Below are positions 2,262-34,005 of a stretch of 34,005 bases of DNA, piece by piece. Position 1 is the first letter of the stretch. Every line of letters starts with the position of its first letter. The position numbers were made by a program, and so were the translations under genes. The notes beneath the pieces were generated by a model. It did not search any database. It was not told the origin of the DNA and saw nothing but the letters and a program-made list of their open reading frames with translations. The DNA is from Neophaeotheca triangularis (taxonomy: Eukaryota), in NCBI GenBank assembly GCA_054600435.1, contig BAAIJX010000067.1, forward strand, positions 62,001 to 96,005, read 5' to 3'.

Positions 2262-3941
2262 CTACCGTCCTGTAACCCCATCAGCCCTCCCATCCGCTCC
2301 CACGCCAGCCTCCCCAGCCGCGCCCTCACCCCCACCACCCCCGGCACTTCCTCCACCAAGATAACTCTCCTTCTCCGCATCCTCATACTCCCCAATCAAG
2401 TCCATAACCACCTCCCTCGCAGTATCAAACTCCCCCAAACCATCCCTAAAAGCCTCTTCCCGCTTATACTGTTCGAGGAAAGCGTTTCTCTTGCGCAAAC
2501 GATCGTATTGCGCTACTGTGCGTTTGAAGAGCGTGGCGACGCCCGTGTGGTTCGCGAGCATTAGCCCGGATACGCGGGGTGGAGTGCGGGTCGTGTAGGG
2601 GGGTTGGGTGTAGGGGGATGTTCGCGTGAGGGCGACTTGGATGCTGGCGGGGCCCCAGGGGATGAAGGGGGTGAGGCTGCGTTCGCGGAGGCGGAGGAGG
2701 GATTTGTGGACCTGTATTGGGATGGAAAGGTTAGCGGGTAAGAAGTGAGATTCGGGTTGGTTGGGACCGGTAGTTGAGATGGATGATCGGATGCATGGCA
2801 GTGACTTACGTCGGTGGGATCTGCTTCGCCCATGATAATGTTGAGGATGCTGATGTAGCAGCTGCTTTTACTGGGCACCGTGCTGACCATGCGGTTCTTT
2901 GGCTGCAACAGTCTGCGCATCACATCCAAGACGGTAGTCTTCCGCACTGTGCGGTTCGCTTCCACATCGTCACCTGTAAAAGGTGTGTAACTCGTTTGCA
3001 AGAAATGGCACCGCGGCGTCGGAATCAAACTCGCCATTATCCCCACCAAATCATTATGCATATAACCCGGATAGCGCAGCGTCATGGTCGCGGCGGACAT
3101 GACGGTGGAGATCAGCTGGTTGGTCTGCTGGTACGAGGGTTCCGACATGTGCAGGGTATCGGCTGCGATGCGCGATAGAGCGCCATTGTCCAGTACCGTC
3201 ACGGCGTCCGCGTTCTCCGTCAAGCGTCGCAGCGACAGTAGCGAATTGTACGGCTGAACCACCACGTTGCCCGCGTTCTGCGTGTCTTCGAAGACAGAGT
3301 ATGTCTGGATGAGCTTCTTGGGGAAGCGGTCGTTGAGCCTCTCGAGCAGAAAACTCCCCAGTCCACTCCCAGTACCACCTGCTATCGAATGCAGCAGCAT
3401 AAAACCCTCCAGACTATCACTCCCGTCGGCTTCGCGATCAATCATATCCAGCACCTCATCCTGCACCGTCTCTCCCATACCATAGCCGGTAGCCCAATTA
3501 TTCCCTGCGCCCGTGCCTTGTTTCGCGACGTAGAAGTTCTCCGGGTTGTAGATGTTACCGTAGGGAGCGGCTTGGATGCCGTTGATGACGCGCGGTTCCA
3601 GGTCGAGGAGGATGGCGCGGGGGATGTAGCGCGTATCGTCGGATTGGTAGAAGAAGACGTCTTTGCGGTCACCGCCGAGGGTCGCAAAGGACGAGAGTTG
3701 GCCGTCTTCGTTGATGCCGTGTTCGAGGCAGAGTTGTTGCCAGAATTTGGAGCCGACTGGGAAGAAGACGAGGTGTCAGTGGTGAAGACAGTCATGGTGG
3801 ACGGGGATGAGAGCTTACCGCTGTTGCCGCATTGGCCTGCTTGGAGGGTGATGATTTCGCTGGGTTTGGTGTTAGTTGGATTGAGATGCACTGTATAGGG
3901 TGAGTATTGAGGGGGGGAGTGGTCGAGTCTTACCGTGGCAT
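2262..3941 (-). CDS. mipA: Gamma-tubulin, 4 exons (3941-3934, 3859-3819, 3756-2810, 2711-2262)
   Basis: Spliced N-terminus [41 protein letters not shown] tubulin signature; [30 protein letters not shown] and GLMLANHT are gamma-tubulin motifs; all three introns are GT..AG and keep the frame. Confidence 0.97.
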
Positions 3942-14633: not shown

Positions 14634-16754
14634 TCATTGGTAGGCTTGATTGTCAAGATCTCGAAACAGCGCATCCCAGTCCTGTACCTCCGTAGTCGTA
14701 CTTAAATCGAGGTAATCTTCAAAGAGATTCGGGTATTGTCCAGAAAACAGTCCGTCAGTGGCTGTCTCTCCGGCCGCATAAGCTTGATTGGTCAATGCTA
14801 TTCCTTCGGACGCATTCGTTGACGCCGCAGCACGGGACTGCTCAAACGACGTTTCCGATCCCTGGAGCTTGACCTTGTGCTTCTTTAGAACAATTGTCAG
14901 CGACTCCAAGTACATTCCAGCATGCAAGGAACCTTTCCCGGCCTCGACGAGCATCTCACAGGCCGAGTGGACCTCGGACTTCCGCTCCTCGTCGCCGTCT
15001 TTGTCTCCGTGAACGCACATATCTAGCACTAGCACGATGACAGCGCAAAAAAGATGGTGTAGAACGCACACAAGCTTGAGCGGATTGGAGCGTTGGGGTC
15101 CCAAGTCATTTGTTACTCTGGCCCTGAGGCTCAGGACCTTCCGTGCAGATTCCAAGCAGACAGTTCGTGAGAAGGCGAATCTAGGGTCTTGACTTGCGCG
15201 GATTAGAAAAGGAAGGTGAAGCCTGCAGCGCCTTGTGAGGATGGTAAGGTTTGTAAAATACCGCTGAGAGTCGATGATTTGGTCGCCGGTGACAAGCTGA
15301 GAGTCGGAGCAACTTCTATTCCCATTAAGCGTGAGAGAGCCAGGTAGAGTTTCCAAAAGCTGTGAGAACTTCCCGTCGAGCTCTGTTACGCGATCGTAAG
15401 GCATCTGGCTGATGTCGTCGCAGGCGAAGTAGTCCCATGTGGCGTCGGCAGCCTCGCGGCAGAGTTCTCCGAGCCGAACGCGGGAAAGATAGTAGGACAT
15501 TACGGTAGGCTCTGAGAGCGGACGGTCGAATTCTGCACCTCTCGTCATGAGGTCCTCGTCTGAAACGTTTCTCGGCATGTTGACTCGGATGTGGCGACGC
15601 TGCACGGAGTATGTACATTCCTGCGGGCCGGGGACAAGAGCCAAACTCCAATCCGTAGCTGCTAAATGCCACCAAACCCTCCTCTTCACCTCGGTCTCTA
15701 CCATCTGATCCCGTGTTTGTGGCTGAGAACAAGGCAGAGGTACAGAATCTGTTATGTGGAGGCCCATATGCCGCGCATTAGTGAGGGCTGTTGCGTGCAA
15801 GTAAAATGCCTTCGGAGAGAAGCCCTCTATGTGGAAAATCAGAAACATGACGATAATGGTCCCTTGTATTATCTCCAGAGAGGGTGAGGTCGTGCGCTGC
15901 GAATGCGTGTGGACATCGAGTGCACATCGAAGCCAATACATTCCAATGGCAGTTGCTTCGTCGGAAGAGCCTAAGATCGACGGTAATTCGTATGTGCTGA
16001 AACTTTTGTAGACAGCAGTGGTGGCAAGGATGCTGAAGAGAAGCATGAGCTGATTGACATTCGTAGGCTCATTGTTCCTTAGCCGCTCAAAAATATCGGC
16101 AATCTTAACATGGATGCTCGGTACATGCACAATGTGCTGCAGTGTGTCGACAGTCTCACTGTAGCTGGCAAAAAGATGCAGTGCTTCCGTCTCCGTAGGC
16201 AGGATGAGCTGCCCGTAAGACAAAGTGCCGCAGGCCACCATGGCGTGAAGATTGGCTAGATGTTCTGTGCCAACTCGAAGCCCATATGACATGTTGGGCA
16301 TCCGTGTATTCTCCCGAGTACCAACGCCTTCCAAGAATTGTAGATCGCCAGTGAAAGTCTTCACGACCTCTGATTCTGGAGCGGGAAGACGAGCGTTAGG
16401 TTTGCTGGTTGTGATTGGACCATTCAACTGCTCTGGAGAGTCGGTGAAGCTAGACTTGCCGCTGCGGTTGTTGTTGAATACTGCGTTCTCCAGCCGCCTT
16501 AGACGTGCACGGATGGCTGCGTTGTCCGCATCGAGATCGGATGATGGACCTTGCATCCGCGGTGTCGATCCATTATTCGTCGCAGGGTAAAGGGTCGATA
16601 CAGTATGGCCTCGATGTCCTTGAAAGAGACAAGATACACCACGGGACCTACAGTTAGAGCATGGCTCGGTTCGATCGCATTTCAACTTCTTCTTGCGGCA
16701 TGAATCGCAAGACACAGGCTCCTGACGTGGACGACTTGTTCTCTGCGGAGGCAT
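14634..16754 (-). CDS. Zn(II)2Cys6 transcription factor with fungal middle-homology domain
   Basis: CDSCRKKKLKCDRTEPCSNCRSRGVSC cluster; ARHMGLH...EVKRRVWWHLAATDW middle-homology motif; ATG at 16754. Confidence 0.95.
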   Translation of the reverse strand: MPPQRTSRPRQEPVSCDSCRKKKLKCDRTEPCSNCRSRGVSCLFQGHRGHTVSTLYPATNNGSTPRMQGPSSDLDADNAAIRARLRRLENAVFNNNRSGKSSFTDSPEQLNGPITTSKPNARLPAPESEVVKTFTGDLQFLEGVGTRENTRMPNMSYGLRVGTEHLANLHAMVACGTLSYGQLILPTETEALHLFASYSETVDTLQHIVHVPSIHVKIADIFERLRNNEPTNVNQLMLLFSILATTAVYKSFSTYELPSILGSSDEATAIGMYWLRCALDVHTHSQRTTSPSLEIIQGTIIVMFLIFHIEGFSPKAFYLHATALTNARHMGLHITDSVPLPCSQPQTRDQMVETEVKRRVWWHLAATDWSLALVPGPQECTYSVQRRHIRVNMPRNVSDEDLMTRGAEFDRPLSEPTVMSYYLSRVRLGELCREAADATWDYFACDDISQMPYDRVTELDGKFSQLLETLPGSLTLNGNRSCSDSQLVTGDQIIDSQRYFTNLTILTRRCRLHLPFLIRASQDPRFAFSRTVCLESARKVLSLRARVTNDLGPQRSNPLKLVCVLHHLFCAVIVLVLDMCVHGDKDGDEERKSEVHSACEMLVEAGKGSLHAGMYLESLTIVLKKHKVKLQGSETSFEQSRAAASTNASEGIALTNQAYAAGETATDGLFSGQYPNLFEDYLDLSTTTEVQDWDALFRDLDNQAYQ

Positions 16755-17760
16755 GGTGATCAACACCGTTCGCGGATTTGATGACCCCCACAGCGCTCCA
16801 TGTTGTGACTATCGGGCGAGCACAAGCAATTGGCGATGTGGGATAGGGGGTAGTGAGGTTCAGTCAGTAGAAGTTCGACGGGCCCAAGCTCTGGCCGCTA
16901 GGCTGCATTTGGTATATACACATACGGACACTGAGGTGCTTTCTCACTTCACAACCTCTTTCCTCAAAGCATCCTATCCCTTAGAAGAACCCGTAAACTC
17001 CACCTAAAGAACGGAGTAAAGGCTGCTCGAGACATGCTATCGTTACGATAGAAGAGCGGCGATGATCAAAGACTACGGCAAGGAGCTTTGCTCTGTCCCA
17101 GAACTTGCGAACACGGCGAACACGGCGTCTGCGGCGGGAATACCGGTATTTATATACGCTTCTCGGATCCACTGAAATTGAATAGAAGGCCTAGCAAATA
17201 GCTTAGGTCTAAAGGTATCATGGCGGCAACTCAACGTCGATGTTGCGTCTTCCAACGTCTTGGATTGAGGTTATGTATGAATCGCAGGACCTGCGATGCA
17301 CATATTACAGAGTGGGTGTCACTGCGCAAATCCTGAAAGGCGATAGAGTACTCTGCTTGTAACCGGGCTCGGTGCGGCGAGGTTGGCGGGCTGGAGAGAC
17401 CGTTATCGACAGTCTTTGTCTTTACCCCAAGCGATGCATCCAGACCTCCCGTCGTTCGTCGAGTATCAACATGGGCTGTGCAATTTGCGCACATGGGGTT
17501 AAAACCAGTGCTGCGTCCTCTAAAGCCCAGCGTTCGTGCCTTCCCTGGGACGCACAGCTCTCGGCCGAATGCATCGCGGTTTGCGTTCAAGTGAGCGACA
17601 TGCTTGTTGTGGCCCAGCAGACACGGGAAGCCGTCATTCCAATCTCGCTAGTCGCGAGCTGATCTGGGTGTCCATCTTGCAGACAAGGAGGAGTCATGTC
17701 CCCATGGCGTTATCGAGCCAATCTGTGTGCCGGGCTGCGGGCAAGTCTCCCTTCTGACCT

Positions 17761-22180: not shown

Positions 22181-23361
22181 ATGAAGGTAAGCTGCTGCCA
22201 GGAGATACCCTCTCTCTCTCCACCTGTCTTTCGCGCCATATACACGCATTGCGCGACGAGACAATGCCATGTCAGCCCATGCTAACAAACATGTAGTCGC
22301 TTAGCTTCCCCGTCCCAAGGCAGCCGCTTCCCAGGACAACCGAATCCATGTCCGACGTCCTCAACTTCACCACCCACGATACCCACTGCGTCGGCGCGCT
22401 AGACGTGTTCTCTACAAAGGCCACAAAGGCGGAGAAGAAGGATTATAAGAAGGTCAAGGCCGTGCTCGACAAGAACTACGAGGATCTCCGCCAGGCGCAG
22501 GTCTGCAAACTGGCGTGGATGAAGGCCAAGGGCGTGGAAATCACCGAGGAAGACAGTAGAGAGCCTGAGCAAAGCAGCGTTTTCGGCAATCTCCATACGG
22601 ACAGCAAGGCTCGTCGCACCTTCTACTTCGTTACTCAAGCGCTCAACCTGGTCCATCCAGAGTACGATATCACTCAAGCATTGCAGTTGAGCGACTTCAA
22701 GCGTGTCTCCCTCAACTATATCCAGAAGAAGATGACAGATCAGCTTGGGTATCTATATCCTAGGAAGCGCAATTTCAGCAGATCCGACCGTTTCCGCCCA
22801 ACCCAAGCCAACAAAGCAGGCAACATGCCACCTTGGGACAACAAGTGCTGGGCCGCCTTTCACAAAATCATGGAGCTCCGAGCGTGCAAGATCTACGAGT
22901 ACGCTCCAGAGGAAGACCCGTACGTCGGTGATGTTGGCAGCTCGACTTACGTCCACTTTGTCTTCTTCAACACCTTCCGCAAGCGTATTTCCGTCCTGCA
23001 CTGGCGCATTGTCAGCATCATGGCCACGTCTCCCGTTCGCCATGATTCTCCGCCTAAGCGCCGCAAAGTCAGCGACTCCTTCGACGTAGCTACTGGAGCC
23101 GCCAAACGCAAAGACTACTGGTTTAGCGACCAAGCACCATCCTATGCACGGGACGGCAGCATCACAGGCATGGCCGAGTACGACGACGACGAAGAAGACA
23201 TGGAGCCTGCCACCTACTCATCCACGGACGACGGCTTCTGGGCCCTGGAAGACGCCCGCAACCGTATAGCAAATGACGAGTGGTTTGACGAGGATGAAGA
23301 CGAGGACGACAGCCAGACGCTCGGTTACGTTCACGAGATGGCGGAAGAGGCGAACTTCTAG
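22181..23361 (+). CDS. MAF1: Maf1-like RNA polymerase III repressor (divergent); exons 22181-22186, 22297-23361
   Basis: ATGAAG|GTAAGC micro-exon spliced in frame; LNF..HCVGALDVFSTK...KKDYK, SVFG..SKARRTF...LN..HPEYD, IYEYAPEEDPY, FFN..RKR and an acidic tail match the Maf1 A/B/C boxes. Confidence 0.8.
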
Positions 23362-24390
23362 GCGGCTTTCGACAACTCATTGGCTTTCAACAAGGAAAAC
23401 GACTACGTCGACGACGAACACGTGAGTAAATACTACCACGACAACATTTCCGAACGTCCTGCCCACCGCCACGACGATTTCCGGGACCTAGCAGCCCTGG
23501 ATTACAAGAGCAACGACGCAGGCCCAGCGAAAGTTCGACAGCTTGGCATCGGCGCGGGGGAAGGCAGGTCATGAGGATCCGGCTGCCGGGGGGTTTCGGC
23601 GCTGCGAAGCATAGTCAAGGAGCTCGCGCCAGGTAATAAGCTCCTTGAGGCACTAATAGTCGGCGTCGGGGGTATCTTTGCCTGCCCTCCCGCCCGTCCT
23701 TACGGTTATATAGAAGTAGGAAACGGGAATTGCTAAAGGGGGCATGCGGTAGGGTATGAAGAGGCCGAGAGCTCTTCTCTTGCAATAGAAGGCCGCTTAC
23801 GTGCTAAAGGGGTGTTCCTAAGAAGTTAGGGAGAGCATGTATGCTATCGGAAAGGCTATAGAAGAGTAAGGTTGCCCCTAATAGGCGTTCTTCTCGGCGA
23901 ATTACTAACCGAATATATTAGTCGGCAAAGTTATTTACGAGTTGTAGATTATGTAGCTAAGTTTAGTCTACTTTCTACTATAGTCTTTCATCACTCCTTT
24001 TACGTTCTTTATAGCCTAATTATATTAGTATCAATTTACCTAGTCTTTTAAATTAATAATATAGACATATAAATAATCTTACAATTTATATAGTAATTAT
24101 TAACTAAAGACTTAAAGTAAGAGCTATTTACTACTTTAAACAACCTTAGATATAAAAAGTATAATATATATAATTACTAAGTTTAGATATGTTCTAAGCT
24201 AAAAACATTTTTACTTAGACTTTTTATATTAATCACATTACTTAAGTATTAATTACATCCTCTTTTAATAGCCTATATAGGTATATTACATTTATATACA
24301 TAATACTATTATCGAGTAGCGCGAGTACTTAAGAAGCTAGGAGACTAGTCTTACTTAGGGAGGTATTATTTCTAATAGTTACGAGTAATG

Positions 24391-24817
24391 TGTTACGATC
24401 CTATAAGGTAGTCTTATAGGTTTAGAGCTTATAGTAGAAGAGAAGAGATATTAAGGAAGGCTAGTAAGGGTGTTTCCTTTATTATAAGGATTTTAAAGAT
24501 ATATAAAGTGTTACTATAGACCTTTTAGTAAGATTATAACATAAGTTAAACACAAATCTCTATCTTGGAAATATCGCTACCTAAATATAAGGAGATTTAT
24601 GTCTCTAATTATTATAATCTGTCGCTCTATAGTACTTAGTTAAAGGTAAGTACTAAGTAGAGGTAAGTACTACTCTATCGCTTAGTAGTACTTAGTTAAA
24701 GGTAAGTACTAAGTAGAGGTAAGTATATTATATAACCTAAATGTACTCTATCCTATAACTATAGGTTCTACTAAGCATTCCTTATTATATACTAGGTATA
24801 GCGTAATGTTCATAATA
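24391..24817 (-). repeat. 3' LTR of outer element (427 bp), followed by polypurine tract 24818-24829
   Basis: Begins TGTTACGATCC; ends CATAATA (RIP form of ..TAACA); next to ctatccccctcc (PPT on - strand). First ~210 bp are homologous to the inner LTRs. Confidence 0.88.
24630..24725. repeat. 40-bp perfect direct repeat (56-bp period) in outer U3
   Basis: tagtacttagttaaaggtaagtactaagtagaggtaagta at 24630-24669 and 24686-24725; each copy contains AGTACTTA-N8-TAAGTACT inverted arms. Confidence 0.9.
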
Positions 24818-24905
24818 CTATCCCCCTCCTAGTCTAGCTCGTCCTAAGCTTATTCTCTACTTATCTTTCGTTCTATAGTTAATAGTATCTTCCCTTATTA
24901 ACGCG

Positions 24906-25502
24906 ATACCTAAAACAAAGAAGTCTTCTACTACTCGTTGCTATAAGTTATTTAATTTCCTAGATTCATATAGAACGGTTCTTAACATAGTTCGAAAATG
25001 TATGTAATACTAGGAGGTAGGTCGTATATATAAGGTACACATTTAGTCTAGAAAGTGTACTACCTATATATAGCGAAACATTTCTTCTTATAATATAAGA
25101 GTAATAGAGAACGAGTTCGCTTACCTTTATCATAATCATAAGTGTCTTTATAAGGCGATAGAAGAGGCTTAGTATATATCTATTATTGCTTAGTAAAAGG
25201 TAGCTAAGGCTTAAGAGGAAGCGAATCGTTTACTATCTAAGGAAATATGTCTTTAGAAACAAATAGACCGTTTATAGGAGAAGGAGGGAGAGGCTATAGC
25301 TATTAAAGAGCATAACATCGAGCTCCTCGAGCTTAAAGAAGGTAGTAACGAGCTCTTTAATCCTGATTTTCCTCCTAATTAGCTAGGTCCTAATCTAGCT
25401 TTAAATCCTCTTACTTAGACTTCGATAGACAGCCTACCTAACGAGTTTTAGGACCTTAGTCTAATTCCTAGTGATATTACTATAGGATCCTCTAGTAGTT
25501 AA
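24906..25502 (+). pseudogene. RIP-inactivated antisense ORF of outer element: Zn2Cys6-like plus coiled-coil protein (199 codons)
   Basis: No frameshifts over 597 bp; start ATA (RIP form of ATG); stops are all TAA/TAG. C-M-*-Y-x6-Y-x8-C-x2-Y-x7-Y becomes C-x2-C-x6-C-x8-C-x2-C-x7-C if TAY is reverted to TGY. Confidence 0.75.
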
Positions 25503-26076
25503 GTAAGTTGTCCTTAGGTTCCTAGGTATTTTTACTTACTAGGTATCCTTTCTATTTCACGAGGTAGTTCTAACTATCTCTATCTAGAATCTTTTCGACC
25601 TTATACTTAGCTTCTTCCTCTAGTAGATTATAGTAGAAGGTATCTTAGATTAGTATTTTAGTATCTACTAGTTCGAGTAAGGATATATAGAAGACTAGGT
25701 AGACTCTAGTATCTTTTAGGAGTTAGAGGAGGTAGTTAACTTTTCCTCTTTATTCTTTAACTAGAAATGGTCCGACTTTAATATAGTCTAGTTTTCGCGT
25801 TTATCTCCTTATCTTTAGGTTTTTCGTAAGTAAGTACACCTTATCCCCCTTCTTAAGCTAAGGTACTATTTTAGAGTCCTTATGTCTCTATAACTTAAGT
25901 CGCTATTATAACTATGTAAGTTTGTCTTTCGCTTATTTATATACTTTCTATAGCTACGAAGATGTTTATAGGGCCTTTTCTATAAGTAGTCCTAGCTTTA
26001 GTTCTATAAACATATTTAGATCTTTTCTAAAGTTTATATAGAATAGAGTTATGCCTATCGTCTCTAAGGCATTATT

Positions 26077-26497
26077 TGTTGCGATCCTACAAGGTAGTCT
26101 CACGGGTTTAGAGCTCGTAGCGGAAGAGGAGAGATATCGAAGAAGGCTAGCAAGGGTGTTTCCTTTGTCGTAAGGGTTTTAAAGATACGTGAAGTGTCGC
26201 TATAGACCTTTCAGTAAGATTGTAATATAAGTTGAACACAAATCTCTACCTAGGAAATATCGCTAGCTATATACATAGGAGATTCGTGTTAGATCAGTTC
26301 TTGACTAATCCGTCGTGCTCAGGATCAGACTAATCCTAAGTGTCCTAGCTTAGACTTAGTCTGAGTCTAAGCGAGCATGCTTAGTTAAAGTCTAAGCGAA
26401 CGTCTTGGCTAGTTCTAAGATCACGTGTCCGGCAAGCCTTAGGGTTAGACCCTAGCTCCGACTAGGAATTCTAGCTCTGCTTAGCTTAGCCGTAACA
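26077..26497 (-). repeat. 3' LTR of inner element (421 bp); PPT at 26498-26510
   Basis: TGTTGCGATCC...CCGTAACA; adjacent ctatccccctttc reads GAAAGGGGGATAG on the - strand. Confidence 0.96.
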
Positions 26498-26581
26498 CTA
26501 TCCCCCTTTCAGCCTAGCTTCGTCCTCGAAGCCTAATAAAGTTCCGTTATTCCCTACATCGTTTTGTCATCAAGTTTCGCG

Positions 26582-27181
26582 ATGTCTTCTACCCTGTCCC
26601 GTAAACAACAACGTCTTAATCTCTCGGCCGAAATCGAGAAGTCTAGAACAACCAACATAGTACCCTGTTCAGCCTATCGATCTACGAGGAAATCGCCTTC
26701 GGCCGAACTAGTACGATGTATAATTAGTGCTCGATCTAGTCGGTGTTCGGAATGTATACGCAAAGGGTATACTAAGTGTGACGCAAAGCTTAGTCGTCCT
26801 AAGTGGGAAAAATGGAGAGATTCACGCAACAAACTGTAACGGCAGTTAGAGGAGTGTAAGGAGGAGGAGCTCGAGCTTTTACAAAAACTACACGAGCGTC
26901 GTTCGAAAAAGTTGCGGTTGCGGAAACAGCTTCGTTATGCTAAGGGTCGCACGGAAACCGCGGTGTCTAGAGAGTTAGAGGATTTAGAGCAAGTAGATCG
27001 GTTAGAGGAAGATCTCTTAGGTCCGGTTAACACTAGGGTTAAGGTTACGCAGCGTCTAGGCTTTGTTAGTATTCTAGAGATGTCGACGCAGGACTAGAGT
27101 GCTATCGACGGCTTAGATCTTCCTTCCGAGCTTTAGGATTTCGGTCCTAATGATATTGTTACAGGGCCTTCTAGTAGTTAA
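26582..27181 (+). pseudogene. Antisense ORF of inner element: Zn2Cys6-like plus coiled-coil protein (200 codons, 3 RIP-type internal stops)
   Basis: MSSTLSRKQQRLNL...PCSA(Y>C)RSTRKSPSAELVRCIISARSSRCSECIRKGYTKC...KL*RQLEECKEEELELLQKLHERRSKKLRLRKQLRYA... One frame joins ORF-track pieces 26564-26839 and 26912-27097. Confidence 0.8.
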
Positions 27182-30100
27182 GTAAGTTGTCCTTAGGTTC
27201 CTAAGTGTTTTCGCTTGCGTAGTAACCTTTCCATTTCACGAGGTAGTTCTAACCGTCCTTGTCTAGAATCTTTTCGACCTCGTACTCGGCTTCTTCCTCT
27301 AGTAGATCGTGGTAAAAGGTGTCTTAGATTAGTGTTTCGGGGTCTGCTAGTTCGAGCAAGGATATATAGAAGACTAGGTGGACTCTAGCGTCTCTTAGGA
27401 GTTAGAGGAGATAGTTGACTTTTCCTCTTTGTTCTTTAACTAGAAACGGTCCGACTTTGACATAGTCTAGTTTTCGTGTTCGTCTCCTTGTCTTCAGGTT
27501 TTTCGTAAGTAGGTACACCTTATCCCCCTTCTTAAGCTAAGGTGCCGTTTTGGAGTCCTTATATCTTTATAACTCGAGTCGCCGTTACGACTATATGATC
27601 TTGTCCTTCGCCTATTAGTGTGCTTCTTGCAGCTGCAAAGACGTCTATAGGGCTCTTTCTACGAGTGGTCCTGGCTTTAGTTCCATAAATGTATTTAGAT
27701 CCTTTCCGAAATTTGCATAGAATAGAGTTAAGCCTGTCGTTTCTAAGGCATTGTTATTAAGTGCGAGCTATGCTATAGGTAAGAGCGCTACCTAATTGTC
27801 CTAAGCGTAGTTGACGTAATGTCGCAAATACGTTTCGAGGGATTGGTTTGAGCGTTCTGTCTGTCTATCGGTTTCGGGGTGAAATGCCGTCGAGAGCTTG
27901 TGCTTCACTCCTATTGCTAATATTAAGGTTTTCTAGTAGTTAGATGTGAAGAGCTTGTCTCTATCCGTAATCAGAACCGTTAGAATGCCGTAGTATCGTA
28001 CTAATCTATCGAGAACAAGGTGTCCGAGTTCTTCTACAGTAATTGTCTTATTGTAGGGAACGAAATGTGAGTACTTCGTGAGTCTGTCGACTATGACTAG
28101 GATCGAATCGTAGTCCTTGTTTGTCGATAGGTCTCTAGATCTCGGTAGCTTTACGATGAAATCCATTGTAACCTCGTTCCATAGTAGATCCGGTGGCTCC
28201 TAGAATTGTAGGTTCCTATATTTGGCGTGTCTCGAAGCTTTGTTTCGTTAGCAGCTCGTACATTTCTTAATGTACTCTAAGACCTTCTGTCTCATTCCGG
28301 GGAACACGAAGTTACGTCTAATGTATTCTACTGTTCTAGCGATTCCTAGATGTCCGTTAGTAGGTCTATCGTGGTAGTCCTAGATGTACTAGCGTTCCCT
28401 TTCGTTTAGAACCCTAAACTTCCTATGTTCGACAGGGAATTCCTCGGTGTCATCCCTAAGTACTCGCAGTACTAAGTTAAATTCCTAGGGGTTAGCGCTT
28501 AGGCTTCCGTCCTTATTAACCTTTAGTATGCGGTGTTGCTATAGAAGGTGTCCTTCTATGTAGTCGCTTCTTCTGCTTAGCGCGTCGGCGCGCCCATTGT
28601 CTTTTCCGGGAGTATAGACTATGTCGAACTTATATTGTCCGAGTAGCTCTAACTATCTACATTGTCGGCGTGACAATTCCTTGGTTGTTGTAAAGTATTG
28701 CAGGTTCTTGTGATCCGAGTAAATAGTTAGTCCGGTTGCTCCTTTACAGTACACTCTCTAGTATCGCAATGCTATAACGATTGCGAGCAGTTCTTTGTCG
28801 TAGATCTCGTAGTTCTATTCCGCTAGTAACATCTTCCTTAAGAAGTAAGCGATAGGGTGTCGTTTGCTTTCAACCTCCTACGTAAGGCAAGCTCCTATTG
28901 CTCTGTCGGAGGCATCGGTTTCGATTTGAATTGGTTTCTTAGGGTCAAACATCCTTAGCGTAGGAGCAGTCGTGCATAACTCCTTAAGCTTATCGAAGGA
29001 TTATTGTTGAATCTTTCCCTATACGAATAGTATGTCCTTTTTCGTAAGGTTAGTTAGAGGCGTAGCGAGCCTTAAGTAATCCTTTACGAATTTCCGATTG
29101 TAGTTAGCTAATCCGAGGAATGCTTGGATGTCCTTAACTGACTTGGGTATTAGCTATTCCTCGATCGATTAAGTTTTCTTCGGGTCTATTCGGATCCCGG
29201 TAGTGCTAATCACAAAACCTAGAAAGTCGACTTCCTTCTTGTAGAACTCGCATTTCTCTAGTACTGTTCTAAAGTCTACTTTGTCGAGTCGTTCGAATAC
29301 TGCGTGTACGTCCTTAGTATGTTATTCTCGTGATCCTTTCGTGAAGACTAATATGTCGTCGATGTAAGCGATAACAGTAATGTCGAGTAGGTCTCGTAGG
29401 ATGTCGTTAACGAGTTGTTAACAGGTTGCTAGGGCGTTCGTAAGTCCTATAGGCATAACCTAAAATTCGTAAAGTCCGTAGCGCGTTCGAAAAGCTGTTT
29501 TCCACTCTTCCCCCCTTGCCATTCTAACTAAATAGAATGTATCTCGGAGATCGATCTTGGTGAACTAGTGTGAACCGGTGAGTCGATCTCTCATCTCGTC
29601 GATATTAGGCAGTGGATAACGGTTTTTAGTGGTGATCGCATTGAGTCGTCTGAAATCGATAACTATTCGTAGTTTTCCTCCTTTCTTAGGAACGAAAAAC
29701 GGTGGTGAAGCGGCTAATGAAGTAGAGGGTCGAATCTATCCTTTCTTCATTTTTTCATCTAGCTATCGTCGTTGCTCTTCGAGCTCTTTTTCGGATAGCG
29801 CGTAAAGTGGCCCCCATGGTATCTTCGTACCGGGCTGAATGTCGATTCGGTAGTCCTATAGTTAATGTCTAGGTAGAGCGGCTACTCCTTCCTCTTCCTA
29901 GAAAAGGCGCTTCCATTTTCTAAATTCTCTAGGGATATCTAAAGGTGCGTGACTTCCTTCCTCAACTCTTACTTATTAGTCCGTTTAGGCTAGTTCGGTA
30001 CCTATAGAGTCCGATCTAATTCGTATTAGTATCGTGGTCGATTAGCGATACGTTTCGTTGATCTGCCTTCTCTTATCTGCCGTCGATCGCTGCCGGCGCG

Positions 30101-30548
30101 TAGGGTAGGTTGTAGTAACGTAACTACACCTGTCGAATGTAAGTACTCGTTTTCTCTAATCCACTATAGGATTGTGTCGTTCTAACTAAGGAGTGCCTAG
30201 AACGACGTCATGTCTAGCCATAGGCATAACGTCTAGGACAATTCGCTCGTGATGCTTTTAGAAGACAAGTGGTAGCGGTACTGTTTCGCTATCCACGTCG
30301 GGTAGTAATAAGCCGTCCACGGCTATTAGTTCGTACCCGCTATCTGTTTTCTTCTAGGTAGCTAGCCTATGCTAACGTACGAAAGTTTCCGAGATAAAGT
30401 TTCCGCTAGCTCCGGAATCTATTATAGCGAGGGTTTCGTATCCGTCGACAGTACATGTTGTTCGGAAGACCGTTCCTAATACTATTTCGTGTTAAGCATT
30501 TGTATTGTTTAGTTCCTAACGCTCGCTCTTAGCGACAGGTCCTATTCG
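27102..30548 (-). pseudogene. pol: pol: protease, reverse transcriptase, RNase H, integrase, chromodomain (RIP stops, frame intact; true 3' end uncertain)
   Basis: LAIIDSGASGNFIS (~30415), AYIDDIL (~29360), IETDASD (~28915), MDFIVKLP..DSILVIVDRLTKY (28166 downward), GPFLV (~27445), EYEVEKILD...YLVKWKGY..SENT*EP (~27290-27195). Confidence 0.95.
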
Positions 30549-32761
30549 TTTTTTAAGAAGTAGGTAGATGAATCCGCTGTTTCGAGAGAGACTTCCTAGT
30601 AAAGGGGTCCGTCCCGAGGTCTAATCGTGACTTTTCCTTGGATTGCGTGTGCGGTGATAGGTCCTCGTGTAGTTGCTTTAACATGTCCGAGGATCATCTT
30701 TCGGTCGACTAGTAGTAAGAACTTATCGCGCGGTACTATGGTCTATTGGTCCAAGGAATCCTGTGCTTGCTTCTTCATTTCTTATAGCGTGATTTCTTCT
30801 TCTCTCTATTGCTCCTAGATAAGCTAGAATTCTCTATAACGATTCTTGACTGTTTTGACTCGTTGTCTTATAGAATGTGGGATTCGTATCCCGTCTGGCG
30901 TAATGTAGCCGTTTTCTCCGTGAAAAGTACTTCCTATTAGTGGCCTGTCCTAGACAAAGGTGGTAGCGTCATACTCGACGGCGACCTTTCGGTAGTCCTA
31001 GAACATTGCTCGTAATCGTATAAGTATGGCTTCGAATTAGTTAGGTTCTAAGCGTCGTTTGCCTTAGATTATTAGGAACACTTCTTCGTACGATCGTGCA
31101 ATGTAAATGACCATTTTCTTGATCGGGTTTGGTCCGTGCACAATGAACTCTACTACGTCGTTGTCGTCTAGTTCATCATCGTCGGTGTAGTCGCATTCGG
31201 AGTCGTCTTCGGAATCCGTCACTGTCGTATCCTCTTGCAATTCTGGAATTTCTAGAGGCATCGATAGCCTTAAAGGGCTAATCTCCGGCGTTAGTACGAT
31301 CGCAGTGAGTTCCGGTGTCTAAGATATTTCTTCGTTGTCTGAGTCGGGTGTTAGGGGTGCTATTATCGGTGATAGTGCTTAGTTTTCTTGCAGTTTGTCG
31401 TCCTCCTATGCAAATAGAGGTAGGGACCTTCCTCGGGCTACGTTGCCGTCGTCCCTTGACTGCTGTAGTGGTTAGCGTCTTAACATCATGTTGAGTTCCT
31501 TCTAAGGCTTACGTAGTTGCTTAGATTCTTCGTCTGCTATAGCCTTAATCCTGTCGTTTAGATCTACTATCTAATCGGCTACTTAGATCATAAGGTTAAA
31601 GTGCTCTTTAGTCTACTCCTTATAGCTCACCAAGTCATCGTGAAACTCCCTAAGCTTCTAGTATTGCTCGATTAGCGCGTCCGTTCCGGACTTCGGGGTA
31701 ACTCGTTCGATAACGTTCACTTCCTTCCGAGGTCTAATAGGTATTCCGTTAGTCACTAGTCCCTAACTTTTGTGCACCAAACAGTAATCCCTCTTGTAAA
31801 ACCTCTAGTGAAGTTCGTCGTGTTCCGGTTCTTCGTAGGTTCCGGTGATGTCGTAAGCTCCGCGGCTCTTATCGGTAGGAGAGTCGTTATCCTATCGGGT
31901 CAAAATCGCATTAACCTCCTAGCGTGGGCGCATCTGTTTCCCACGGCAGTCTCGTGCATAGTGCCCTATCTTGTAGCAGTTATAGCATTCCGGTCCGTTC
32001 CGTTTCTTGCCTAGGGCGTTCTGTTTGCCCCGTCCTCTATCCCTACCCTTCCTAGGACGCTGTTACGTAGAGTCGAGTTCTATCGCATCAGGATCGCGAC
32101 GTTGCTAACCGACAGGCCGGCTGCCGGTAGCATAGCTAGTTCGTCCGCGATACTGTCTAGTGTGGCGTTTTTCCATAAACCGTTCGTAGAGAGCGTCATC
32201 AACCTCGATCGCCGATTTAATCATACCGGGGAGAGTTAACTGATCGCCTCCGTAGCGTATGAGTTCGTCCTTCACGTTGTCCTTAAGTCCTCGGTAGTAC
32301 ATGGTTATAAGAGCGTTGTCGTCCTAGTCGGTCTTGGCTAAGTGCTCCTAAAACTTAGCAGTGTACTAAGAGGCAGACGTTTTCTACGTAAGGTGCTGAA
32401 TCATTCGGATAGCAACTTGTCGATCGTTGCTCAATCTATAGACGTTACGGATGACCTTAACAAAAGACTTCTAGTTCGAGAATAGTCCTTTAGGGTCGAT
32501 TCGTTCTATAAGGAAATCCGTAAGCTTTAGGCGGATCTAGTGTTAAGCTTCTCTACGAAGGAAAGAAGCAGTAGTAAGAGGTTGCTTCTACTCACTAACG
32601 CTTTCTATAAGGAAGAACATCATCATCTGGTTAACCTAGTCGTCTAGCTTGTTACGTTCGCCATAGAAGTAGTCCGGTTTGGCAACCTTGCTAGTGACCA
32701 TGGTTAATACTCCTCGTTAAGTGCTAGCGACGCTTGCGTCTCGGTTATCGGATGGGGACAT
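30542..32761 (-). pseudogene. gag: gag (740 codons including stop), with CCHC zinc knuckle and long C-terminal extension
   Basis: ATG at 32761; KVAKPDYFYGERNKL, MYYRGLKDNVKDEL, CYNCYKIGHYARDC (~31945-31990); ends ..KNE* in the same frame. Confidence 0.9.
30548..30554 (-). other. Putative -1 ribosomal frameshift heptamer A AAA AAC at the gag/pol junction
   Basis: - strand TTA AAA AAC GAA TAG ends gag; the -1 frame runs into the protease motif. Confidence 0.75.
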
Positions 32762-32801
32762 ACTTACCTATTAATCTCTCTTTCCTAGAGGGTGTTCAAA
32801 G

Positions 32802-33222
32802 TGTTGCGATCCTACAAGGTAGTCTTACGGGTTTAGAGCTCGTAGCGGAAGAGGAGAGATATCGAAGAAGGCTAGCAAGGGTGTTTCCTTTATCGTAAGG
32901 GTTTTAAAGATACGTGAAGTGTCGCTGTAGACCTTTTAGTAAGATTGTAACATGAGTTGAACACAAATCTCTACCTAGGAAATATCGCTAGCTATATACA
33001 TAGGAGATTCGTGTTAGATCAGTTCTTGACTAATCCGTCGTGCTTAGGATTAGACTAATCCTAAGTGTCCTAGCTTAGACTCAGTCTGAGTCTAAGCGAG
33101 CATGCTTAGTTGAAGTCTAAGCGAACGTCTTAGCTAGTTCTGAGATCACGTGTCCGGCAAGCCTTAGGGTTAGACCCTGGCTCCGACTAGGAATTCCAGC
33201 TCTGCTTAGCTTAGCCGTAACA
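32802..33222 (-). repeat. 5' LTR of inner element (421 bp)
   Basis: Colinear with 26077-26497; by manual comparison 14 differences, all CpA>TpA or TpG>TpA. Confidence 0.96.
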
Positions 33223-33882
33223 TTATTATTAAGTACGAGCTATACTATAGGTAAGAGCGCTACCTAATTGTCCTAAGTATAGTTAACATAATGTCGCAAA
33301 TATGTTTTAAGGGATTAGTTTAAGTGTTCTATCTATTTATCGGTTTTAGGGTAAAATGCTATTAAAAGTTTGTGTTTCACTTCTATAGCTAATATTAAGG
33401 TCTTCTAGTAGTTAGATGTAAAGAGCTTGTCTCTATCTATAATTAGAACTATTAGAATACTATAGTATCGTACTAATCTGTCGAGAACAAGGTATCTAAG
33501 TTCTTCTATAGTGATCGTCTCGTTATAGGGAATAAAATGTGAATACTTCGTGAGTCTATTAACTATAACTAGAATTAAGATATAGTCCTTATTTGTCGAT
33601 AGGTCTTTAGATCTTAGTAGCTTAACGATAAAATCTATTATGACTTCGTTCTATAGTAGATCTAGTAGCTCCTAGAATTATAGGTTTCTATATTTAGTAT
33701 GTCTTAAAGCTTTATTCTATTAGTAGCTCATATATCTCTTAATGTATTCTAAGACCTTCTATCTTATTCTAGGGAACATAAAATTATGTCTAATGTGTTC
33801 TACTATTCTAGCGATTCCTAGATGTCTATTAGTAGGTCTATCGTAGTAGTCCTAGATGTACTAGTGTTCCTTCTTGTTTAGA

Positions 33883-34005
33883 GGGTAGGGTTAGGGTTAG
33901 GGTTAGGGTTAGGGTTAGGGTTAGGGTTAGGGTTAGGGTTAGGGTTAGGGTTAGGGTTAGGGTTAGGGTTAGGGTTAGGGTTAGGGTTAGGGTTAGGGTT
34001 AGGGT
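33883..34005 (+). repeat. Telomere (TTAGGG)n, chromosome end
   Basis: GGG-TAGGG followed by 19 perfect TTAGGG units to the end of the window, G-rich strand pointing outward. Confidence 0.98.

Follow-up and report, generated by a model that had tools for sequence, protein, structure and literature searches.

An inactivated antisense accessory gene between pol and the 3′ long terminal repeat of a fungal chromovirus, and the large, unnamed protein family behind it

An antisense frame at the end of the outer chromovirus is a gene inactivated by point mutation

We analyzed a stretch of 34,005 nucleotides (nt) from the fungus Neophaeotheca triangularis (contig BAAIJX010000067.1, positions 62,001 to 96,005; hereafter the window), which carries two Ty3/gypsy chromoviruses on the minus strand, one nested within the other. 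Our subject is an open reading frame (ORF) of the outer element at 24906-25502, placed antisense between the chromodomain end of pol and the 3′ long terminal repeat (LTR), together with its counterpart in the inner element. We found that the outer stretch is a dead copy, altered by repeat-induced point mutation (RIP), of a real antisense accessory gene, and that both copies in the window are inactive. The features that bear on this finding are as follows.

24906..25502, plus strand: RIP-inactivated antisense accessory gene, 199 codons, start codon now ATA, 13 internal stops
24999..25091, plus strand: six-Cys motif, codons 32-62 (C-x2-C-x6-C-x8-C-x2-C-x7-C), with 4 of 6 Cys now Tyr (TAC/TAT)
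25107..25358, plus strand: codons 68-151, one long helix in the model of the intact relative P0005, with a hydrophobic period of 3.5 residues (predicted coiled coil)
25471-25605, minus strand: Pfam chromodomain match of the outer element, E 4.7e-4
26582..27181, plus strand: inner antisense gene, 200 codons, 3 internal stops, same last four codons as the outer gene
27150-27284, minus strand: Pfam chromodomain match of the inner element, E 1.5e-8

The outer ORF ends in the codons TCT AGT AGT TAA, and its internal stops are all TAA or TAG. A first-pass annotation, made from the letters alone, had pointed to a resemblance between the outer and inner ORFs in length (199 and 200 codons), strand, distance from the polypurine tract, terminal codons and overlap with the pol chromodomain, and each of these observations stands: both ORFs lie on the plus strand, they begin 88 nt (outer) and 84 nt (inner) from the polypurine-side LTR edge, they share their last four codons, and each ends 32 nt inside the opposite-strand Pfam chromodomain match. 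The outer element is a RIP-mutated repeat, as seen from differences between copies that are mostly transitions and from the shifted indices of the outer ORF (TpA/ApT 1.71, (CpA+TpG)/(ApC+GpT) 0.36, GC content 0.34) compared with those of host DNA (0.72, 1.17 and 0.54, respectively).

Searching a database of 5.8 billion sequences with the outer translation, in which stops were written as X (P0002), we obtained one protein among 27 candidates, namely P0005, which is intact, 199 residues long and matched at E 5.3e-48. The global alignment of the two covers 198 columns without a gap (95 identities, 103 mismatches), so that the outer ORF contains no frameshift. Changes of C>T or G>A alone could account for 53 of the 103 mismatches, compared with 15.6 +/- 3.2 (maximum 26) in 1000 shuffled-residue controls, and for 11 of the 13 stops. 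The six motif codons of the outer ORF (32, 35, 42, 51, 54 and 62) now read TGT, TAC, TAT, TGT, TAT and TAT, and at each of these positions the intact relatives P0005 and P0160 have Cys. The earlier reading of the four TAC/TAT codons as mutated Cys codons is therefore borne out, with neither the Tyr residues nor the frameshifts that its authors had named as contrary signs to be sought in less-mutated relatives. P0005 itself has two full-length cluster mates differing at 2-3 residues, one of which is found on 11 contigs.

The inner element carries a homologous gene of another clade

The inner ORF encodes the motif C-x2-C-x13-C-x8-C-x2-C-x7-C, in which one Cys is now Tyr. Its translation (P0001) retrieved 2 proteins among 177 candidates, P0003 (E 3.4e-34) and P0004 (E 8.5e-31), both intact and both with the motif C-x2-C-x12/13-C-x7/8-C-x2-C-x7-C. 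The claim that the two window ORFs share one Cys pattern thus holds for the presence of six Cys in each and fails for the first loop, which spans 13 residues in the inner ORF and 6 in the outer. When the two RIP-mutated translations were compared directly by BLASTP, they matched only in their last 37 residues (E 0.002), and because this part overlaps pol, the direct match alone is no demonstration of homology. Through their intact relatives the relationship is evident at the protein level (P0005 versus P0003: E 1e-15, 34% identity over 139 residues; P0005 versus P0004: E 9e-15), and the outer and inner ORFs are accordingly homologous as proteins, in two deep clades of one family.

The gene belongs to a large, unnamed family of Ascomycota

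Extending these comparisons with profiles, we found that an inner-type profile matched 382 representative clusters (defined at 50% identity) at E<=1e-3, 82 of them at <=1e-10, and that a profile of the family matched 138 proteins among 8000 scored. None of the 120 proteins listed among these 138 carries a precomputed Pfam domain. The named members among the matches listed are all from Ascomycota (Xanthoria, Cladosporium, Pseudogymnoascus, Friedmanniomyces, Hymenoscyphus) and are all entered as ‘hypothetical protein’; the clusters returned by the ESM Atlas were likewise all from Ascomycota, unnamed and lacking a shared Pfam family, and scanning viral contigs with two alignments of the family gave no relative. 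The family is therefore large and, in the database entries among the matches listed, unnamed.

Among 258 proteins fetched, 207 possess the six-Cys pattern, with loop spacings that are most commonly 13-8-7 (64 proteins), 6-8-6 (62) and 6-8-7 (26). In an alignment of 122 full-length members, which we selected from these 258, every one of the 122 has all six Cys, and no other column is invariant. Constant across the family are the length, the six Cys, a helix motif of the RLRKQL type and the tail. A Met four residues before the first Cys (Met28 in P0005) is nearly invariant, and several database proteins begin there; a shorter protein initiated at the equivalent of Met28 is possible.

An intact element carries the gene in the same place, with a spliced transcript

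We searched metagenome contigs for the genomic context of the gene with a narrower alignment of the family, and among 254 pattern matches found one relative, an unmutated contig of 4804 nt (L001). Its pol lies on the minus strand and ends at 3162, while a 200-codon ORF occupies 2654-3256 on the plus strand, overlaps pol by 95 nt and leaves about 500 nt of its length free of pol; the nearly invariant Met noted above falls at position 2741. Beyond the ORF, as seen from pol, come a polypurine tract, an LTR of 312 nt that begins with bases similar to those of the window LTRs, and gag. The pol of L001 shares 59% identity with the inner pol, and the ORF of L001 40% identity with P0005 (E 3e-39). The antisense placement between chromodomain and LTR, which the first-pass annotation had named as a point to check in relatives, was thus seen in the 1 of 1 locus that could be fetched. 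Besides the ORF itself, no frame of at least 80 codons covers this part of L001, and the conservation of the ORF is accordingly not a shadow of pol. In the contig as a whole, the pol 3′ end is followed by the antisense gene, a single LTR, gag and the pol 5′ end, so that the element, which appears intact, was either assembled in collapsed form or exists as a tandem pair or as a circle with one LTR.

Parts of L001 are present in 24 RNA-library runs from 14 studies, and we compared the contigs of four of these runs (X1, X2, X4 and X5) with L001. Contigs of X2, X4 and X5 are one letter off L001 across the ORF (from 2790, 2711 and 2797, respectively, to 3258), and beyond 3258 their next 12 letters are those of L001 3340-3351; in a contig of X1 the joint has the same geometry. 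The absent 81 nt (L001 3258-3338) begin with GTTAGT, contain CTGAC and end in CTCTAG, so that they bear GT-AG intron signals, which are canonical on the ORF strand only. This intron starts one base past the stop codon, in a stretch whose opposite strand codes for the chromodomain. For L001, then, the RNA contigs show the ORF in a transcript of its own, spliced on the ORF strand. In X1, X4 and X5, contigs of related elements, which downstream are about 91% alike, have 3257 connected to 3338 by three additional letters, and these relatives thus seem to splice at slightly different borders.

By analogy with the spliced form of L001, introns are predicted in both window copies, again antisense within the chromodomain coding sequence.

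25503..25587, plus strand: predicted 85-nt intron of the outer gene (GTAAGT directly after the stop, CTAAC at 25570, AG at 25586-25587)
27182..27266, plus strand: predicted 85-nt intron of the inner gene (same signals: GTAAGT after TAA, CTAAC, TAG)

Contig depth differed along L001, with the ORF contig at 71-89 in X2, X4 and X5 versus 0-17 elsewhere, and in X1 with the ORF contig at 7.7 and the pol contigs at 17; because depth cannot rank the parts of an element, these values were not used as evidence. We also drew no conclusion from the RNA contig of X4 that ends at L001 2711 beside adapter letters, nor from the parts of L001 that no RNA contig covers.

With these data we weighed whether there is a gene here at all, as opposed to a frame that is open by chance, or is conserved only through overlapping pol codons or through cis signals (polypurine tract, U3). 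Such an account could draw on the terminal codons, which overlap pol and are the only part in which the mutated translations match directly, and on the spliced antisense transcripts of Ty3/mdg4 and Ty1/Copia elements in Blumeria hordei, which have been described as long non-coding RNAs (PMC10648671). Those transcripts, like the L001 RNA, run antisense to genes of fungal LTR elements and have antisense-strand splice sites; that source reports no meaningful peptide for them, whereas the spliced L001 RNA carries a conserved 200-codon ORF. We consider the no-gene account close to refuted, given the pol-free extent of the L001 ORF, the protein-level matches (E 5e-48 and 1e-15), the invariant columns that are exactly the six Cys, and the 198 columns that align to P0005 without a gap. 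The original proposal that the antisense ORF is a real third gene is upheld by its intact relatives, the six invariant Cys, a reading frame mostly outside pol and the spliced RNA contigs.

The gene and the upstream U3 were exchanged as one module

The outer and inner versions of the gene sit in backbones that are otherwise nearly the same, and the features needed to describe their boundary in the outer element are these.

24391..24817, minus strand: 3′ LTR of the outer element, 427 nt, RIP-mutated
24818..24829, minus strand: polypurine tract of the outer element, read on the plus strand as CTATCCCCCTCC, adjoining the LTR directly

As the first-pass annotation had noticed, the DNA of the two versions cannot be aligned: transversions per site reach 0.297 between 24602-25446 of the outer element and 26289-27131 of the inner, compared with 0.014 in the R/U5 part of the LTR and 0.011 in pol. 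The first 216 nt of the outer LTR (24602-24817), which are the upstream U3 in element orientation, are unalignable with the inner LTR, and the divergent block as a whole reaches from near the pol end into the LTR, stopping 16 nt before the TATA-like box on its upstream side. Among the 125 sequences of a FastTree tree, proteins with a 13-residue loop form one clade that includes the inner ORF (41 tips, support 0.89), with one such protein outside it, and the outer ORF is sister to P0005 plus P0160 (support 0.96). Because pol and R/U5 are near-identical while the ORFs fall in different deep clades, we conclude that a module of U3 plus gene was exchanged between lineages, and we infer recombination between co-resident lineages as the simplest account of two gene and U3 versions in one backbone. 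The proposal that the length, frame and Cys pattern of the two diverged versions reflect selection on the protein therefore stands as regards conservation at the protein level, and falls as regards divergence in place, since the two versions did not diverge where they now lie.

Within the divergent U3 of the outer element, a 55-nt unit is repeated in tandem at 24615-24725 (91% alike), in place of which the inner U3 has several CTTAG/CTAAG words. The polypurine motif of the outer element is also found beside the inner LTR and the L001 LTR, and next to it about 25 nt (roughly TAGCTTAGCTCGTCCTCGAGC) are alike in 24830-24855, 26510-26535 and L001 2593-2615, standing out against a module that is otherwise unalignable. 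These 25 nt may serve in priming, or they may belong to the promoter or leader of the antisense gene.

The protein resembles a miniature zinc-cluster activator

As judged from sequence and model, the protein has a basic N-terminus, the six-Cys domain, a long helix and an acidic, aromatic-rich tail, in that order. An AlphaFold2 model of P0005 built on the 122-sequence alignment reached a mean pLDDT (predicted local distance difference test) of 87 and places helices at 8-22, at two short segments in the Cys region, at 68-151 (pLDDT 92-99) and, as short ones, at 168-189. The long helix of about 85 residues keeps a hydrophobic (heptad) period of 3.5 across the family, and acidic residues make up 18% of the tail, basic ones 1.7% and aromatic ones 8.8%. 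Comparing the model with the PDB by Foldseek returned 19 matches, and the 14 listed were all Zn2Cys6 DNA-binding domains (Leu3, Gal4, Pho7, Hap1, Lac9, Ppr1, Put3), while VIA-align superposed it on Lac9, Ppr1, Leu3 and Pho7 with root-mean-square deviations of 2.0-2.5 A over 33-37 residues.

A host Zn2Cys6 transcription factor in the window (14634-16805, minus strand), situated 8 kb from the elements and matched by both Zn_clus (E 5.9e-9) and Fungal_trans, was our positive control for Pfam and hhalign. When aligned by hhalign to the Zn_clus domain of this factor, the family profile scored a probability of 67.6% (E 5e-5) with the six Cys in register. The spacing of the Zn(II)2Cys6 domain (PF00172) is C-x2-C-x6-C-x5-12-C-x2-C-x6-8-C; P0005 and the outer ORF with its RIP changes reverted fit it, and the x13 first loop of the inner clade does not. 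Overall, the modeled layout looks like a miniature dimeric DNA-binding activator of the Gal4/Put3 type, and we would liken the protein to a small factor of this type without classing it as a proven member of PF00172.

The weak profile likeness to a host factor invites the thought that the gene came from the host, as part of a Zn2Cys6 gene that was captured once and has since been carried as a passenger of no service to the element, and additional ORFs of plant LTR elements are often considered captured (PMC7264820). We regard this as very improbable. With 382 clusters at 50% identity the family is large and old, it has kept its length, six Cys, RLRKQL-type helix motif and tail, both deep clades occupy the same position within near-identical backbones, and the splice signals are retained. 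Nor was a longer form with the middle domain of fungal transcription factors seen, in searches whose length restriction could not have shown one.

We think it reasonably probable, instead, that the window ORFs descend from an accessory gene of an Ascomycete Ty3/gypsy chromovirus lineage, encoded antisense between the pol end and the 3′ LTR, whose product is a DNA-binding regulator of its own element. The intact gene is open, about 200 codons long, and overlaps the end of pol with its terminal codons. Its promoter would probably lie in the spacer of about 85 nt or on the antisense face of U3. The protein would enter the nucleus and bind zinc, pair through its coiled coil and bind DNA, and regulate the transcription of its element by way of the variable U3 segment that precedes the TATA box, with this segment and the gene presumably inherited and exchanged as one module.

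A number of results weigh against this proposal. The Foldseek matches have E-values of about 1, none of them <=0.001, and the VIA-align Z scores are only 2.0-2.7. Against Pfam Zn_clus, P0005 had no match at E<=10 and P0004 scored E 1.1 (9.9 bits, with a cut-off of 21); just 11 of the 122 aligned members reach E<=0.01, the best of them 4.2e-4, and none attains the gathering score. Pfam searches with the uninterrupted segments of the inner ORF and with intact relatives likewise gave no family above cut-off, and a sequence profile search of the PDB gave no significant match (PUT3 at E 0.068, amid coiled-coil noise). In the L001 U3 the CGG/CCG triplets are not enriched (7 observed versus 6.3 expected, with 906 of 2000 shuffles reaching 7). 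The joint exchange of U3 and gene may reflect mere adjacency. The RNA evidence consists of assembled contigs from environmental RNA libraries, in which strand is not seen directly and an origin from DNA is possible, and the genomic context outside the window is a single locus.

Some of these points would suit a gene that is real and element-borne without regulating its own LTR, the product serving as a chromatin or target tether, as a binder of RNA or Gag, or as an anti-silencing or anti-RIP factor. With the family below the Zn_clus cut-off, the Cys6 domain may have another ligand; the 13-residue first loop of one large clade lies outside the usual Zn2Cys6 spacing, the triplets of the L001 U3 are not enriched, and the pol domain that the gene overlaps, the chromodomain, is the one linked to targeting. 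We nonetheless find this unlikely, as the sole structural neighbors among the matches listed are Zn2Cys6 DNA-binding domains followed by coiled coils, hhalign places all six Cys on those of a true host Zn2Cys6 factor, the acidic and aromatic-rich tail suits an activation region, and the gene was exchanged jointly with the upstream U3.

Taking the regulator proposal one step further, Ascomycete chromoviruses may carry their own sequence-specific factor, a mini Gal4-like dimer expressed from a spliced antisense mRNA with its intron concealed in the sequence that codes for the chromodomain, that travels with its cognate U3 sites as an exchangeable cassette. This we put forward as a tentative possibility. 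If true, recombination would move a unit of regulator plus target between otherwise identical elements, and the cassette would be to these fungal elements what accessory regulators such as HBZ or Tax are to retroviruses.

Comparison with known systems

By analogy, the closest known thing is brtn, the antisense extra gene of Boty-like elements in Botrytis and Sclerotinia (2011, Virology 417:248; via PMC8365987, PMC7264820, PMC4227169, PMC5987419). According to the passages that cite it, brtn belongs to a fungal chromovirus and lies, like the window gene, between pol and the 3′ LTR and antisense to gag-pol; the outer, inner and L001 genes all have this position and this strand. The same passages (PMC8365987, PMC7264820, PMC4227169, PMC5987419) refer to a Monilinia transcript that matches a truncated Pol with chromodomain plus BRTN, which fits the pol overlap of the window gene, and they are silent on a Cys6 motif, a coiled coil, an intron or a joint exchange with U3. 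The likeness to brtn is thus one of position and strand. The name BRTN is absent from the 120 proteins listed of the 138 family-profile matches, and a term search of two supplementary files of PMC8365987 found no brtn text.

Antisense additional ORFs between pol and the 3′ LTR also occur in plant Ty3/gypsy elements, among them Grande1, RIRE2, Retand and PvRetro13, and these share with the window gene their position and orientation, their conservation within families and a function that is not known (PMC7264820). They differ in having plant hosts and in residing mostly in elements other than chromoviruses; the passages describing them mention no zinc-cluster motif, and the likeness is again by position only (PMC7264820).

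On the side of the protein, Gal4, Put3, Leu3, Ppr1, Hap1, Lac9 and Pho7 share with the family the succession of C-x2-C-x6-C-x8-C-x2-C-x6/7-C, linker and coiled coil, the last of these as predicted for the family, together with an acidic tail. The product of the window gene is unlike these factors in measuring only about 200 residues and in having no middle homology domain, its family in scoring under the Pfam cut-off and in the 13-residue first loop of one clade, and it is encoded by a mobile element, whereas Gal4-type factors are encoded by host loci.

As regards the arrangement of the gene, HBZ of human T-cell leukemia virus type 1 is an antisense-encoded basic leucine zipper protein transcribed from the 3′ LTR. 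The resemblance lies in an antisense gene at the 3′ end of an LTR element, in a small dimerizing factor of DNA-binding type, and in a spliced antisense mRNA; fold and host kingdom are unrelated, and for the window gene an LTR promoter would be an inference only. Our literature searches found no published description of a zinc-cluster protein encoded by a fungal LTR element.

Significance of the gene family

LTR retrotransposons are usually regarded as two-gene elements, and here a third gene is widespread in Ascomycota (the 382 clusters above) and spliced in an intact relative. If its product is a DNA-binding regulator, such elements may set their own transcription and not rely on host factors alone, and the module swap in the window would amount to a natural experiment in which one backbone is combined with two cassettes of regulator plus U3. 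Gene callers label such ORFs as host ‘hypothetical proteins’, and antisense transcripts of fungal Ty3 elements that have been classed as non-coding may merit re-examination. Since both window copies are dead, the interest lies in the family and not in the locus. The locus itself is an inactive example of a kind of gene that is already known, and it is the family, large and without a name, that merits study.

The elements lie at a chromosome end

The remaining features of the two elements place them at the end of a chromosome.

25471..26076, minus strand: 3′ part of the outer pol (SH3_Tf2-1 and chromodomain), which stops at the insertion site of the inner element
26077..33222, minus strand: inner sister element, with LTRs at 26077-26497 and 32802-33222 and a TTATT target duplication
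33223..33884, minus strand: continuation of the outer pol (integrase region), aligning without gaps to inner 27751-28412
33885..34005, plus strand: telomere repeats (TTAGGG)n, capping the truncated outer element

The inner element codes for a gag with zinc knuckle and a pol in the order protease, reverse transcriptase, RNase H, integrase, SH3 and chromodomain, in which Pfam recognized RVT_1, RT_RNaseH, Integrase_H2C2, SH3_Tf2-1 and Chromo (E 1.5e-8). In the outer element it recognized SH3_Tf2-1, and Chromo at the E of 4.7e-4 listed above, which falls under the Pfam cut-off because of RIP. The carrier of the antisense gene is thus a Ty3/gypsy element whose pol terminates in a chromodomain, in the inner element clearly and in the outer at a sub-cut-off score. 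The two inner LTRs (421 nt) are identical at 407 of 421 positions, and all 14 differences are transitions. Across the 662 nt of the second pol piece (33223-33884 versus inner 27751-28412), 551 positions are identical, 107 differ by transitions and 4 by transversions, with A or T in the outer copy at 94 of the 111 differences.

As the telomere repeats run from 33885 to the end of the window, the window is the end of a fungal chromosome. The outer element is broken at 33884 within its integrase region with (TTAGGG)n attached directly, and the chromosome end consequently falls inside a retrotransposon. On the other side of the elements, bases 1-23800 of the window have a GC content of 0.54 and normal dinucleotide indices, and RIP marks set in from about 23900 onward. 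The last host gene before the elements is Maf1 (22297-23358), and between it and the outer LTR lie about 500 nt of very AT-rich, RIP-like DNA (23900-24390, GC content 0.29).

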